DNA of 64,000 nucleotides from Bdellovibrionota bacterium (GTDB lineage: Bacteria > Bdellovibrionota_C > UBA2361 > JAAYZI01): positions 288,001 through 352,000 of the forward strand of contig JBMNIF010000001.1 of assembly GCA_050950765.1 (NCBI GenBank), written 5' to 3'. Position numbers and translations under genes: made by a program. Positions within the stretch are counted from its first letter, which is position 1; each line of letters opens with the position of its first letter. Of this stretch, positions 58,573 through 64,000 are shown piece after piece. The notes below the pieces were generated by a model that had not been told where the DNA came from, searched no databases, and worked only from the letters and a program-made list of their open reading frames with translations.

Positions 58573-58912
58573 TTAAACTTTTTACAATTAAATTACTTAA
58601 ATAAGTTAAGGGCGTTAGCGACCGCTTAAGGCTTGGCTAAGAGTGGGTGTGTCTTTTTTGGGATATAAACGTGTTGCCTTAAAAATAAATTAGACTAAGA
58701 GGAGGAGTTGAAGTACTATCCTAGTGGCGATCTTTTTCTAAAGATTAAAAAATTAGTTAAGTAGAAGAGAAAAAATAAAGTGCTCTCGCATGACAGTTTT
58801 TATATCTCTGTGATGTGAGGGCGCACGGCAAAAATAAAGGTAATTTAGAAAGGTTTTTATACTGCTTGCGTGTCTCTCTATGGCAGCTCCTAAAAGTGTT
58901 AATGGAGCTATT
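58573..58912 (+). repeat. Array module copy 1 (leader half only)
   Basis: TTAAACTTTTTACAATT..GGAGCTATT shared with later copies. Confidence 0.92.
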
Positions 58913-58945
58913 ACATCCATAACCTTGTTCATAAAGGAAACTATC

Positions 58946-59053
58946 ATGAACGTGAAAAGATTAGAAGACACCGTGCTTTTAGGCGGTGGCGGGTTTGAAA
59001 ACATGGAAAGATGAGAGAGCTGCGCGTTGCGCAACAACGCTCTAATTGAGTAA
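58946..59053 (+). pseudogene. Array slot 1: short or remnant ORF (22 aa, then TGA; same frame continues to TAA at the module start)
   Basis: AAGGA SD; MNVKRLEDTVLLGGGGFENMER*ESCALRNNALIE*. Confidence 0.5.
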
Positions 59054-59627
59054 ACCATCGTGCGATGGTTGTTTTCCGCAAAAACTGATTAGGAAAGGAG
59101 GTAATATGAGGTTAGAGAGCCAGAGAGGGAATGTAATCTTAACTCTGGCTCTCACCTGATAGGTTTCAAGTGTTTGCTGTGTGGCTCTCTAACCTTTTTA
59201 ATCTTCTTTAATCTTCATCTATAAGGTGTGTCTTTTTTTCTTTCATCGTGTGTTCTGCTTCTACAATTAAGGACGCTTAAACTTTACATTAAACTTTTTA
59301 CAATTAAATTACTTAAATAAGTTAAGGGCGTTAGGGATCGCTTAAGGCTTGGGTAAGAGAGGGTGTTTCTTTTTTTGGGATATAAATTAAAATTAGACTA
59401 AGAAGAAGGGATGGAATAAGATCCTGCCGGTGATCTTTATCTAAAGTTCCCCTAAAGATTAAAAAATTAGTTAGGTAGAAGAGAAAAAATAAAGTGCTCT
59501 CGCATGACAGTTTTTATATCTCTGTGATGGGAGGGCACACGGCAAAAATAAAGGTAATTTAGAAAGGTTTTATACTGCTTGCGTGCACCTCTCTATGGCA
59601 GCTCCTAAAAGTGTTAATGGAGCTATT
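59046..59627 (+). repeat. Array module copy 2
   Basis: GAGTAAACCATCG..GGAGCTATT, near-identical to copies 3-5. Confidence 0.95.
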
Positions 59628-59672
59628 TTCGGTAAAAACTCTTTTATAAGATTCCTTAGGAGGTACTTAACT

Positions 59673-60178
59673 ATGGATACTAAAAGAGAACGCCAACGGA
59701 AATTGTTGGAGAAAGCATGGGAAGAAAACCCAGCTCTGTTTGTTTATTGTTTGGTCATTGTGGTTGCTGAGAAAGCTCTCAAACTTGTGGGTAACAACAA
59801 TTTCGAAAGCCCAGTCTTACCAAGATCGCCTGACAACGAAGGCGAGTTTGCAATTGAACTGTGTCGAGTTAAAGAAGGTGTGGTTGTGAACTGCAAAGGT
59901 CAATCCGCACCATTCTTCGACTACAAGTTCCCGCGATCAGCGCTCGACTTTCTGTTCAAAATTGGTTCGGATGTGTTGTTGACGTTGATGATGAACGCCC
60001 CCCAGATTGCTGCGCAGCGACCCTTGAGGAACAAAATACAAAAAACCTGCGTGTATTTATTCTGTTCGCCAGACAACTGCAGAGTGATAAGAAATCCTTA
60101 GCTCAATTCGTTCTGCAGTTCGCGGATCCCCTTGAGAAGATGTTGTCTACCTTCCTCGTAAAAGCAAAAACTGATTAG
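59673..60178 (+). CDS. Array slot 2 orphan (142 aa to 60101; probable frameshift, -1 frame open to 60178)
   Basis: AGGAGG SD, ATG 59673; -1 frame reads NLRVFILFARQL..KAKTD* and ends inside the next module. Confidence 0.7.
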
Positions 60179-60704
60179 GAAAGGAGGTAATATGAGGTTA
60201 GAGAGCCAGAGGGGAGATGTAATCTTACTCTGGCTCTCACCTGATAGGTTTCAAGTGTTTGCTGTGTGGCTCTCTAACCTTTTTAATCTTCATCTATAAG
60301 GTGTGTCTTTTTTTTCTTTTATCTTGTGTTCTGCTTCTACAATTAAGGACGCTTAAACTTTACATTAAACTTTTTACAATTAAATTACTTAAATAAGTTA
60401 AGGGCGTTAGCGACCGCTTAAGGCTTGGGTAAGAGTGGGTGTGTCTTTTTTTGGGGATATAAATTAAAATTAGACTAAGAAGAAGGGATGGAATAAGATC
60501 CTGCCGGTGATCTTTATCTAAAGTTCCCCTAAAGATTAAAAAATTAGTTAGGTAGAAGAGAAAAAATAAAGTGCTCTCGCATGACAGTTTTTATACCTCT
60601 GTGATGGGAGGGCACACGGCAAAAATAAAGGTAATTTAGAAAGGTTTTATACTGCTTGCGTGCACCTCTCTATGGCAGCTCCTAAAAGTGTTAAAGGAGC
60701 TATT
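60164..60704 (+). repeat. Array module copy 3
   Basis: GCAAAAACTGATTAGG..GGAGCTATT. Confidence 0.95.
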
Positions 60705-60744
60705 ACATCCATAACCTTTTTATAAGATCCTCTAGGAGGTGACT

Positions 60745-61209
60745 ATGCGTAACATCAGAGGAGAGCTCCAATGGGAATTGTTGGAGAAAGCGCGGGAAGA
60801 CAGGGAATGCTTGGGGGACTCGTCTTCCCGAGAAGAGGCCCAAAAAGCGGTTTTCAGGCTCTTTGGGGTTCTTGAGGAATATGAGCTCAGGGGAGACGCC
60901 AAGTTTACGTTTCTCCGTAGCAGAAAGTTGAAAGTCGACTTTGATGGCGGAGGCTCTACTGGGGTAGTGCATATATTCTTCCGCAATCCTGATACGAACG
61001 AGAAGATCCTTCACGTCGGAATTATGCGTGAAACGCTTGGATTCATGCTTGCGAATTTGAAGGGCTCAAAGCCTAATGAGTTTGATGGACTCTTTAAAAA
61101 ATACAAGAACAGCCTGAACAACCTCCTCATTTTCGCCGTATCACTGGAGATAGCGGAGATCGTGGAGCTGCTTAATGAAGCTCTCGATTCCCGTGATTCC
61201 GTTGAGTAG
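60745..61209 (+). CDS. Array slot 3 orphan (154 aa)
   Basis: AGGAGG SD; stop TAG lies in the module start; N-terminus related to slot 2. Confidence 0.8.
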   Translation: MRNIRGELQWELLEKAREDRECLGDSSSREEAQKAVFRLFGVLEEYELRGDAKFTFLRSRKLKVDFDGGGSTGVVHIFFRNPDTNEKILHVGIMRETLGFMLANLKGSKPNEFDGLFKKYKNSLNNLLIFAVSLEIAEIVELLNEALDSRDSVE

Positions 61210-61756
61210 ACCATCGTGCGATGGTGGTCCGCAAGAACTGATTGTAGAAAAGGTGATAAAGAGCCAGAGGGAGTATGCAATCTTAACTCTGGCTCTCACC
61301 TGATAGGTTTCAAGTGTTTGCTGTGTGGCTCTCTAACCTTTTAATCTTCATCTATAAAGCGTGGCTTTTTTTATCTTGTGATCTGCTTCTACAATTAAGG
61401 ACGCTTAAACTTTACATTAAACTTTTTACAATTGAATTACTTAAATAAGTTAAGGGCGTTAGCGACCGCTTAAGGTTTGGGTAAGAGTGGGTGTGTCTTT
61501 TTTTTAGATATAAATTAAAATTAGACTAAGAAGAAGGGATGGAATAAGATCCTGCCGGTGATCTTTATCTAAAGTTCCCCTAAAGATTAAAAAATTAGTT
61601 AGGTAGAAGAGAAAAAATAAAGTGCTCTCGCATGACAGTTTTTATATCTCTGTGATGGGAGGGCACACGGCAAAAATAAAGGTAATTTAGAAAGGTTTTT
61701 ATACTGCTTGCGTGCACCTCTCTATGGCAGCTCCTAAAAGTGTTAAAGGAGCTATT
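61202..61756 (+). repeat. Array module copy 4
   Basis: TTGAGTAGACCATCG..GGAGCTATT. Confidence 0.95.
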
Positions 61757-61789
61757 TTCGGTAAAAACTCTGATGTTAGGAGTTAGGAT

Positions 61790-62650
61790 ATGACTAAAAG
61801 TAGAAGTAATTCGACACCTAAGCCAGACTTGGGTCAGTGGTTGGCAGATGTGCGAACACAGGTGTCAAAATTCGAGGAAGCGCTAAGAGAAGCCGTAAGT
61901 AATCTGCTGGAACTCCTTAACCAAGTACCAGAAGAGGCACAACAACAGGCATCGGAAGCGTCGGAAGAACAGGCTTTGGAGCAGGAGCTAAAACAGACGC
62001 TGGAATCTTTGCTGGAACAGCTGCAACAGGCGTCAGGAGCAGAGGCGCTGGCAGATATGCTGGCAAAGGGAAGCGAGCTGATGAGCACTCAGTTGCAGAA
62101 TCGGCTGATGGCAACGATGGGATGGCTAATACATGGAAATGTATCAATGTCGACGCTAATCCAAGCGCTGCCGCTGCTATCGGAAAAAGAGCTGCAGCTT
62201 CAACTAGTACTTAAAGCTGGGTTGATACTGAGAAAACGACTGCTTCTGCAACAACTGCTGGAAAAGGCGGAAGAGATGCAGAAGGAGTTAAAACCTCGAG
62301 CACAGGAAAGCTTACTTCCCTCTCTCGCAATCCTTGCATTGGTTGGGGAGGTTGCAGCAAGTGCTTTGAAGAGAAGTGACTACCATGAGGATACGAAGAT
62401 CTCCGTACCTTTTGGGGACAACCCTCAAGAGCAATTCGAAATCAACATCACGTTTGCCACGCTTCGCCTTGTAGGGGAAACGGGGTGGGACATTTTATTG
62501 ATGTCGTTGCTCCTCGAAGAAAAATCTTATGAAGTCACTCTCAGATCGAGTAGCCAGCAAAGTCTACAAGAACTTCGTTCTCTCGCCGAACAAGTGGATC
62601 CAGAATTGGCGAAGCAGTTGATCACTGCTTTCGTAGAGCGGATCTCATAG
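61790..62650 (+). CDS. Array slot 4 orphan (286 aa, L/E/Q-rich helical)
   Basis: AGGAG SD; long ORF between modules. Confidence 0.82.
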   Translation: MTKSRSNSTPKPDLGQWLADVRTQVSKFEEALREAVSNLLELLNQVPEEAQQQASEASEEQALEQELKQTLESLLEQLQQASGAEALADMLAKGSELMSTQLQNRLMATMGWLIHGNVSMSTLIQALPLLSEKELQLQLVLKAGLILRKRLLLQQLLEKAEEMQKELKPRAQESLLPSLAILALVGEVAASALKRSDYHEDTKISVPFGDNPQEQFEINITFATLRLVGETGWDILLMSLLLEEKSYEVTLRSSSQQSLQELRSLAEQVDPELAKQLITAFVERIS

Positions 62651-62685: not shown

Positions 62686-63198
62686 GTAGACCATCGCGCG
62701 ATGGTTGTTTTCCGCAAAAACTGATTAGGAAAGGAGGTAATATGAGGTTAGAGAGCCAGAGGGAGTATGTAATCTTAACTCTGGCTCTCACCTGATAGGT
62801 TTCAAGTGTTTGCTGTGTGGCTCTCTAACCTTTTAATCTTTATCTATAAGGTGCGTCTTTTTTCTTTTATCTTGTGATCTGCTTCTACAATTAAGGACGC
62901 TTAAACTTTACATTAAACTTTTTACAATTAAATTACTTAAATAAGTTAAGGGCGTTAGGGCCGCTTAAGGCTTGGGTTAAGAGTGGGTGTGCCTTTTTTT
63001 TAGATATAAACGTGTTGCCTTAAAAATAAATTAGACTAAGGGGAGGAGTTGGAGTAAAGTCGTGGTGATAGTCTTCTCCCTGAAGATTAGAAAAAATTTG
63101 GTTAAGTAGAAGAAAAAGTAAGTGTTCTCTCATGACAGTTTTTTACATCTCTGTGATGGGAGAACACGGCGAAAACAAAAGGTAGAAAGGTTTTTATA
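62686..63198 (+). repeat. Array module copy 5 (3' part diverged)
   Basis: GTAGACCATCGCGCGATGG..GAAAGGTTTTTATA. Confidence 0.92.
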
Positions 63199-63316
63199 TA
63201 GTTTATGTTCTCCAAAAAAAATCGTTAAAGACAGCTTCTGTAATATGAATTTGCAGTAAGCTAGTCTGTCACCTTGTTCAACTTCCTTTTGCACTTATGT
63301 GCTGGAAAGGACTTTC

Positions 63317-63781
63317 ATGCAAAAGACGTTTCAGCCACCGGAAACGAAAAAGACCACTTCTCAAGTATTCCTTCACCTTCTCATGGAAATTCTGGGATTC
63401 TTGAACCAAATTGAGCCTAGTGCCGATACCCCCGTTGTTTTGTTGTGCCAAAGGCAAGATGGGAATACGCTGGCGGAAATCACGGCTGAAAAGCCTAACG
63501 CCTCGAAATACATCCTGCGCGCCAAACACGGCAATGACACTTTTACCTTTTCACTTTCTCTCGACCTGCTTGAAGAACTTTGCAAAAAGAGTTCGGACGG
63601 ATTGGAAGAATTGGCGAAAGAAATTGAGCGTGCCCGTCGGGTCCGTCGGGAAAAGGTATCGGGAAAGTGTACTGTGGCGGATGGAATCTTGGCAAAGCTT
63701 CTTCCGTTGATGGATCGAATGGACAATGCCGGTCTTCTGCGTAAGTTGGGTAATGGCTTTAAGATCGTCAAAGAAAGTTGA
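63317..63781 (+). CDS. Array slot 5 orphan (154 aa)
   Basis: AAGGA SD before ATG 63317; same orientation as the other slots. Confidence 0.75.
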   Translation: MQKTFQPPETKKTTSQVFLHLLMEILGFLNQIEPSADTPVVLLCQRQDGNTLAEITAEKPNASKYILRAKHGNDTFTFSLSLDLLEELCKKSSDGLEELAKEIERARRVRREKVSGKCTVADGILAKLLPLMDRMDNAGLLRKLGNGFKIVKES

Positions 63782-63864
63782 CCTTCCATTCCTGTAGCCA
63801 CTAACTAGAAAGGAGGAAAATCCAGTTTAGTGACGAAGGGGGAAATTGAAAGAAAGTTGAAAAA

Positions 63865-63963
63865 GGCTAGCGGTGTCATGACAGAATCTTTTGGATACGA
63901 TTTAATTGGTGATTAGGGGGATTAAGGGGGAATTGAGATGGCTAGCGGTGTCATGACAGAATC
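63865..63963. repeat. 24-bp direct repeat x2 containing the palindrome TGTCATGACA
   Basis: GGCTAGCGGTGTCATGACAGAATC at 63865 and 63940. Confidence 0.85.
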
Positions 63964-64000
63964 CTCAAATGACGATCACCAAAAAGGGGGAAGAGGTTGG

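Follow-up and report, generated by a model that had tools for sequence, protein, structure and literature searches.

What is the short element that closes each gene cassette downstream of hflX in this genome, and is the small open reading frame (ORF) laid across it a working part? The window, the whole 64,000-nt stretch of DNA that was analysed (G000:C1:288001-352000), belongs to a 2.64-Mb genome of 40% GC whose sequence was present in digester and bioreactor sequencing runs. A previous reading made without any searches (hereafter the sequence-only reading) held that each full module carries a small ORF overlapping mutually exclusive hairpins, and offered three roles for it: an attenuator of read-through between slots, a type I toxin-antitoxin element, or a new structured RNA. 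Our best reading, to which we give about an even chance, is that the element is a plus-strand terminator or 3' cap, probably leaky in the internal copies, and that the overlapping peptide has no function.

The array is chromosomal and lies between hflX and, on the side away from it, a gene that we take to be rubrerythrin-like. Five units follow hflX, each consisting of a conserved leader of about 370 nt, a variable gene, and the element. A sixth stands alone on the minus strand at G000:C1:52018-50740, with a leader, a 246-aa gene, and element copy 5; its leader is 71-73% identical to the array leaders, and 62% identical to leader 4. All six cassettes thus share the order leader, orphan gene, element, and the element, about 95 bases long, occupies the 3' end of each cassette and not the start of the next. 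Cassette 1 has a leader and no element before it, while copy 5 lies 3' of the stand-alone gene, with no leader after it and a convergent gene beyond; the element is therefore a 3' feature of its cassette. Neither copy 5 nor copy 6 has a cassette behind it. This position, a third helix, and copies 5 and 6 were overlooked in the sequence-only reading. The leaders presumably bear the promoters; the best promoter match in a consensus scan was 9 of 12, found in only three of the five array leaders. Coordinates are collected in Table 1.

Table 1. Coordinates of the cassettes, the element copies and the parts of copy 1 (window positions, unless given as G000:C1).
Feature	Position	Strand	Remark or basis
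Leader (putative promoter region), cassette 1	58576-58945	+	repeat comparison
Further leaders	59292-59672, 60368-60744, 61420-61789, 62916-63316	+	
Sixth leader	G000:C1:52018-51652	minus	
Two-codon minigene in leaders	59411-59419, 60488-60496, 61539-61547, 63049-63057; G000:C1 ~51905 (minus)		
Long leader hairpin	58780-58826, 59494-59540, 60571-60617, 61622-61668, 63122-63167		
Cargo 1	58946-59014	+	22-codon ORF, probably a remnant
Cargo 2	59673-60101	+	142-aa orphan
Cargo 3	60745-61209	+	154-aa protein, no Pfam, PHROG or PADLOC family
Cargo 4	61790-62650	+	286-aa orphan
Cargo 5	63317-63781	+	154-aa orphan
Hairpin P, short, cassette 3' end, copy 1	59054-59068	+	sequence comparison; also at 61210-61224 and 62690-62704 and in copy 5, absent from copy 2
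Shine-Dalgarno (SD) sequence of copy 1, perfect	59091-59102	+	AGGAAAGGAGGT; also at 60177-60188 and 62727-62738
Mini-ORF, copy 1	59106-59159	+	17 codons, overlaps arms A and B; translation
Arm A	59109-59125	+	forms the 5' side of P1 (closing stem) or of A:B (early hairpin)
Arm B	59143-59157	+	early partner of A; in the closed form, P2 3' side and P3 5' side
Inner hairpin of helix P3	59153-59172	+	folding
Arm C, 5-T run and AATCT tail	59182-59204	+	
Copy 2	60177-60299	+	SD, frameshifted 35-aa ORF 60192-60299 running through arm C, arms intact
Copy 3	61240-61347	+	SD and ATG lost, arm A altered, A:B the predicted stable form
Copy 4	62727-62839	+	SD, 17-codon ORF 62742-62795, arms intact
Copy 5	G000:C1:50778-50870	minus	outside the window, end of the stand-alone cassette
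Copy 6 (start)	63991-64000	+	probable, diverged; extends beyond the window to G000:C1:352100

Arm A of copy 1 has two possible partners: arm B, in a 15-bp helix interrupted by a 2-nt bulge, and arm C (59182-59195), with which it forms a perfect 14-bp stem and directly after which stand 4-5 T; this choice of partners had been recognised by the sequence-only reading. Its four ORFs also translated as it described: 17 aa at 59106-59159 and 62742-62795, 35 aa at 60192-60299 by way of a 1-nt deletion, and 16 aa from a GTG at 61253-61303. Copies 1, 2, and 4 are 97-98% identical to one another and, as had been reported, differ chiefly in the loop (codons 7-9 and the deletion); the T run also varies in length. 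A 5-nt variable spot in the loop keeps its length in copies 1-4 and in strain X23. Copy 3 is without the perfect 14-bp stem. Identity is 66-71% between copy 5 and copies 1-4, and no more than 50-57% for copy 6. The ends and tail motif of copy 6 are those of the other copies, and it was the best match, at E 0.95, to a model built from copies 1-5 once the training copies and their antisense were set aside; we regard it as a probable, not a certain, diverged copy closing the array. The motif CTCYAACC followed by a T run and AAT occurs at seven sites in the genome, six of them cassette ends. Perfect inverted repeats of at least 12 bp with 30-90 nt spacing number 65, nine of which have a third arm, and three of those nine are copies of the element. 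The sequence AAGGAGGT followed by ATG is found at 21 sites, three of them in element copies.

What the copies share is a predicted three-way junction that the 14-bp stem closes, with 4-5 U on its 3' side. Its parts are the closing stem P1, helix P2 from the inner part of A:B, and helix P3 from arm B and the segment before arm C. In full-length minimum-energy folds, arm A is closed with arm C in copies 1, 2, 4, 5, and 6; copy 3 favours A:B. Copies 1, 2, and 4 fold better than shuffled sequences (z of -3.85, -2.91, and -2.78), which copy 3 does not (-1.38). Copy 5 forms a clean three-way junction at z -6.54, and its plus strand is favoured by 6 kcal/mol (-43.6 as against -37.6 for the minus strand); the z of copy 6 is -1.45. 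When 1500 random mutants of copy 4 were made with as many changes as copy 5 carries, 0.2% were as stable as copy 5 (P 0.002) and 1.2% kept as many A:C pairs (P 0.012).

In copy 5, a G>A change in arm B is matched in its P3 partner and by a C>T change in arm A; the latter weakens P1 to G.U and restores A:B, a single event favouring the early hairpin. One P1 pair in copy 6 has gone from A-U to G-C. Such compensating changes are few and come from pairing by hand, and an automated count on alignment A3 (copies 1-5), limited to P1 and inner P3, had 93% of its cells paired and a double change in none of 21 pairs; all 500 shuffles equalled its score, that is, there was no excess. No Rfam family matched at gathering score in the window or in nine loci, the only matches elsewhere in the array being two chance miRNA hits at E 1.2 and 4.2. 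The suggestion of a new structured RNA is supported, as a branched fold with compensating changes in copies 5 and 6 and with no counterpart in Rfam. As modelled, the closing stem A:C and the two inner helices are conserved across cassettes, and SD plus ATG are not.

Indeed, a strong SD with ATG is present only in copies 1, 2, and 4, of which copy 2 is frameshifted. Copy 3 had been credited with a weaker SD; weaker it is, and in fact no usable SD is left, its duplex with a generic anti-SD motif reaching -0.6 kcal/mol as against -15.0 in the copies with an SD. Copy 5 has no start codon at the homologous frame and an in-frame stop directly before it. Copy 6 reads AAG in place of ATG, and an SD-like tract with a TTG in the same frame would there give 20 aa beginning LESQ; a 47-aa ORF lies in another frame. 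The statement that every full module carries the ORF thus fails at copies 3 and 5, and neither start nor frame is conserved, as copies 2, 3, 5, and 6 each deviate in their own way (frameshift, no SD, no start, shifted start). Because the ORF is intact in only two near-identical copies, 1 and 4, the peptide is probably without function. Copies 1, 2, and 4 appear to be one recently homogenised lineage and hence one observation. Between copies 1 and 4 there are two non-synonymous and one synonymous codon differences. When copies 1, 2, and 4 are compared pair by pair up to the frameshift, the totals are five and three, from comparisons that are not independent.

Some features fit a degree of coding constraint. 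The SD is perfect and a double stop follows the ORF. The RLES frame is retained with synonymous changes in copies 5 and 6, where the three arm-A changes fall at third codon positions (two distinct synonymous sites). These changes suit pairing as well as coding constraint, and there are not enough of them to decide between the two. The purine tract at the SD can, in all six copies, form a duplex of -5.2 to -9.9 kcal/mol with the pyrimidine tail beyond arm C, so that the SD-like sequence can be explained without translation; in the predicted folds of copies 1, 2, and 4 the SD is paired with this 3' tail.

Transcription was assessed from four metatranscriptome runs, probably of one campaign, which were available as contigs only, with no strand, level, or ends. 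RNA contigs from the four runs cover the cargo genes and bridge the stop of cargo 3 (X7, X9) and of cargo 4 (X7, X9, X12, X13) into the trailer; an X12 contig at 58908-59148 spans hairpin P, SD, start, and arm A. The bridging contigs fit co-transcription of the element with its cargo, with DNA in the libraries as another possible source. At cassette 5, among the RNA contigs listed, those of four runs end at 63947-63985, before arm A of copy 6, and DNA contigs there reach 64000; this is a weak hint that RNA at cassette 5 may end or be cut before the U run of copy 6. Most leader bins and hflX have no RNA contig, which in runs chosen together with the array, and in contigs that cannot show absence, level, or strand, is not informative of silence.

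Under the terminator or 3'-cap reading, the order of events would be as follows. Polymerase arriving from the cargo gene would pass hairpin P and then make arms A and B. In the internal copies, the strong A:B hairpin would be the first to form, as it is in modelled truncated transcripts, where its energy is about -27 kcal/mol for each of copies 1-4, as against -14 for copy 5 and -13 for copy 6. This hairpin would have to be displaced before arm C could close the junction ahead of the U run, which would make the internal copies terminate slowly or leakily. Copy 5, which stands alone, and copy 6, the last, each end a transcription block; with a weak early hairpin (-13 to -14), they would adopt the closed form once arm C emerges. 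The three-way junction and U run would then terminate or cap the transcript of their own cassette. SD and ATG would be a trait of one recently homogenised set of copies, placed inside the purine tract that pairs with the pyrimidine tail. Termination, translation, and switching are all inferred here, and the folding orders are equilibrium folds with crude constraints, not kinetics.

In favour of this reading are the place of the element at cassette ends, the tail motif found there, the fold and its compensating changes, the restriction of SD plus ATG to one set of copies, and the RNA contigs that enter from the cargo. A closing stem of 13-17 bp stands directly before the U run at cassette ends, but that run is short, at only 4-5 nt, and a consensus scan for terminators did not call the element; a terminator capped by a 60-nt branched insert is atypical. 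In a crude survey of the genome, 101 of 1537 long ORFs were followed by a hairpin and 23 of these 101 had at least four T, which is too rough to calibrate terminators. Also counted against the reading were the open predicted minimum of copy 3, the perfect SD with its double stop, the third-position changes in arm A, the SD-like tract and in-frame TTG of copy 6, the missing excess in the automated covariation count, the weak identity and z of copy 6, and the RNA contigs at cassette 5 that end before arm A.

The main rival is a translation-gated attenuator, in which the terminator of an internal copy would be turned on when its mini-ORF is translated. A ribosome would load on the strong SD, reach the stop, cover arm B, and free arm A for arm C; without translation A:B would persist and polymerase would read through into the next cassette, an outcome that loss of the SD (copy 3) or a frameshift running through arm C (copy 2) would also favour. 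We consider this rather unlikely, with a real if minor chance of being right. Folding prediction does place a mutually exclusive terminator and antiterminator under a short ORF in copies 1, 2, and 4. With the last 8 nt blocked, as for a polymerase at the U run, these three copies are mixed (expected A:B/A:C pairs of 5.2/6.7, 8.2/3.2, and 7.5/4.0, respectively), copy 3 is open, and copies 5 and 6 are closed. A ribosome-sized block at the stop closes copies 1, 3, and 4 in the folding model; for copies 1 and 4, A:B then disappears and about 13 A:C pairs are expected. The strong A:B hairpin is limited to array-internal copies, and the constant length of the loop spot and the kept RLES frame point the same way. 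The polarity is also that of ermK-type attenuators: those of the ermK, mef-msr, and bmrBCD type likewise have mutually exclusive hairpins overlapped by a short ORF ahead of a U run, with translation favouring the terminator (PMC5418344).

However, the element differs from that class (PMC5418344) in lying behind a gene and not in a 5' leader, in being followed by a gene with its own leader, and in having an ORF that is not conserved; it follows a cargo gene throughout, and at copies 5 and 6 there is no cassette to be controlled. With a leader of its own in every cassette, read-through is unneeded. The internal copies amount to the single lineage described above, the start codon position is not conserved (AAG in copy 6), and no run of sensing codons is evident (AGG is used 6.6 times per 1000 codons in the genome). 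Retention of the early A:B hairpin in copy 5 was not significant (P 0.24 when scored on pairs and 0.40 on energy); of the 64 mutants that retained A:C, 12 also retained A:B. The models behind this alternative are the same crudely constrained equilibrium folds. The attenuator proposed by the sequence-only reading thus fits the folding models, but SD and ATG belong to one near-identical lineage and selection on the competing hairpin is not significant. A fuller version, in which ribosomes on the 17-codon ORF would flip the three-way junction between self-contained cassettes, each slot tuned by keeping, frameshifting, or deleting the ORF and the block-end copies fixed as plain terminators, we judge unlikely. 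Its appeal is that one genome holds a natural allelic series (intact ORF, frameshift, SD loss, no start codon) that would allow asking whether a 3' mini-ORF can gate a branched terminator of a fold that Rfam does not contain. Should the ORF be incidental, the outcome is more modest: an unusual terminator-like end to a chromosomal cassette linker resembling those of T4-like phages.

A quite improbable alternative is that the junction is cut from the 3' UTR as a small RNA that binds protein, for instance as an RNA antitoxin of the cargo (type III or AbiF-like) or as a trans regulator. The fold is compact, branched, and closed 5' to 3', it accompanies every cargo, and processing would cause RNA contigs to stop short of copy 6, as they do. 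RNA antitoxins co-transcribed with a toxin exist, as structured RNAs beside protein genes (bioRxiv 10.1101/2025.04.15.648962). In the systems described there (bioRxiv 10.1101/2025.04.15.648962), however, the RNA lies upstream of the toxin, with repeats and a separating terminator; here it is downstream, has no internal repeats and no Rfam match, and near-identical RNAs sit beside very different proteins. No cargo has a convincing Pfam, PHROG, or PADLOC family, and no complementary target was found elsewhere in the genome at E below 0.03.

Very improbable, in our estimate, is a feature of the DNA itself at the cassette borders, either a miniature inverted-repeat element or a recombination site, that folds as RNA only incidentally. 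It would account for the perfect 14-bp inverted repeat and for cargo that varies between strains inside the same flanks. The G.U-compatible changes and the better folding of the plus strand in copies 5 and 6 point instead to RNA, no transposon with these ends was seen in the genome, and the best match to the integron integrase model TIGR02249 was 49.8 bits against a cut-off of 265. The core-site order of the arms is the reverse of the attC consensus.

Hardly credible is the type I toxin-antitoxin that the sequence-only reading had entertained, with the mini-ORF as a toxic peptide silenced by metastable and long-range pairing and by antisense RNA. In the predicted folds an early metastable hairpin is indeed replaced by long-range 5'-3' pairing over the ribosome-binding region, as described for aapA3/IsoA3 (PMC6733600), and one stretch of the 35-aa variant is moderately hydrophobic, with a best mean of 1.19 over 17 residues. 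Unlike in aapA3/IsoA3, there is no conserved hydrophobic toxin and no separate or antisense promoter was seen. The 16-17-aa peptides have a GRAVY of only 0.27-0.58, the testable peptides, among them the 35-aa form, match no Pfam, PHROG, or PADLOC family, a consensus scan found no promoter-like site on the minus strand near the element, and the contigs enter from the cargo gene. A rare-codon RNA toxin of the creT kind was rejected, as AGG is not very rare. Hammerhead, retron, and CRISPR-repeat readings were dropped after a comparison of motifs by eye.

The closest known relatives in organisation are the PeSL composite promoter-terminator elements of T4-like phages (PMC4122927). There too, a repeated terminator-plus-promoter linker stands between variable orphan ORFs, and cargo is swapped between strains within conserved flanks (PMC4122927). 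PeSLs are small, belong to phages, and combine a simple stem-loop with a sigma70-like promoter (PMC4122927); here, by contrast, the linker is chromosomal and about 600 bp long, with a predicted three-way junction, a competing hairpin, and a mini-ORF, the genome is not that of a T4-like phage, and the best promoter match is the 9 of 12 given above. By analogy, the whole linker may work like a PeSL terminator-promoter element without being a member of the class.

Searches for the element beyond this genome returned nothing that we accept. It was absent from 40 of 40 related genomes by DNA and from 90 of 90 genomes of the order both by pattern and by covariance model, a set in which only one genome is of the same family, 85% complete and with its hflX running off the contig end. 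In the relative G002, other genes follow hflX. The exact pattern gave no match in metagenomes and none in viral contigs, in scans that may omit records close to this genome. Looser patterns gave 2, 2, and 21 loci in collection scans; these 25 were rejected as chance, with model scores of at most 24 bits that came mainly from the selected outer stem in the alignments shown. A literature search found no description of the element; genome-wide RNA-motif tables in supplements could bear on its novelty. So far it appears, by sequence, confined to one species, with cargo of undefined family. Phage contigs L037:995-1120 (minus) and L033:975-1110 carry promoter-led, 5'-3'-closed branched RNAs that are not in Rfam; in L037 the RNA lies immediately downstream of, and antisense to, a presumably MuF-like head gene that carries a C-terminal extension. 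Both are probably unrelated to the element.

The cargo itself gave few leads. Pairwise BLAST among the cargos found nothing significant. Searches recovered no relatives of cargos 4 and 6, and none of cargos 2 and 5 except strain variants; a profile from cargos 2, 4, and 6 run against 1.84 billion representatives recovered its three inputs only. Cargo 3, which was compared with family libraries and the Atlas only, matched unnamed Atlas clusters at 0.90 or less. Faint common motifs are visible by eye in cargos 2, 4, and 6 (59673-60101, 61790-62650, and G000:C1:50910-51650), and cargos 2 and 3 have a 40-nt 5' repeat in common. The cargos are possibly a very fast-evolving family of paralogues, a kinship that is a visual lead only. 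Slot 1 (58946-59058) holds only the 22-codon ORF, with a glycine-rich stretch at its end; strain X23 differs in the sequence before 59031, and the slot may be a deletion remnant.

Strains differ further along the array. Strain X23 carries a different 517-nt insert between leader 4 and the copy-6 trailer, within the same flanks as cargo 5, and matching joints or loose ends occur in X7, X9, X13, X8, and X11; X8 joins parts of different units, and repeat assembly can mimic such joints. In the strain of the RNA runs, cargo 2 (59673-60101) has 21-25 substitutions and a 2-nt insertion, with which its frame would end near 60027. Cargo 3 shows many changes in strain X23. In the trailer before copy 6 (63805-63990) there are several purine tracts resembling an SD, a direct repeat of 24 nt whose two copies lie 75 nt apart, and the beginning of the 47-aa ORF, which has an SD.

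The leaders have features of their own. Five of the six hold a two-codon minigene (ATG GAA TAA or TTG GAG TAA) behind a purine-rich SD-like tract, and leader 0 has a longer frame at this position. All six also have a conserved long hairpin, in which leader 4 shows a compensating change. Adapter-marked RNA contigs start at 58830 and 63169, the 3' base of this hairpin; they were not accepted as start sites, because other adapter-marked starts fall inside genes. A repeat word with more than 100 copies across the genome, AAAAGTGGGTGTCC, is similar to the 5' part of the leader (58639-58658 and equivalents) and to the element's tail; it also flanks a gene at G000:C1:418239-419291 that we take to resemble a Y1/RAYT-type transposase. 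The repeat word may be related to cassette duplication. Near the stand-alone cassette, at G000:C1:53091-56346, lie two tandem AAA-type ATPase genes, each preceded by short tandem repeats.
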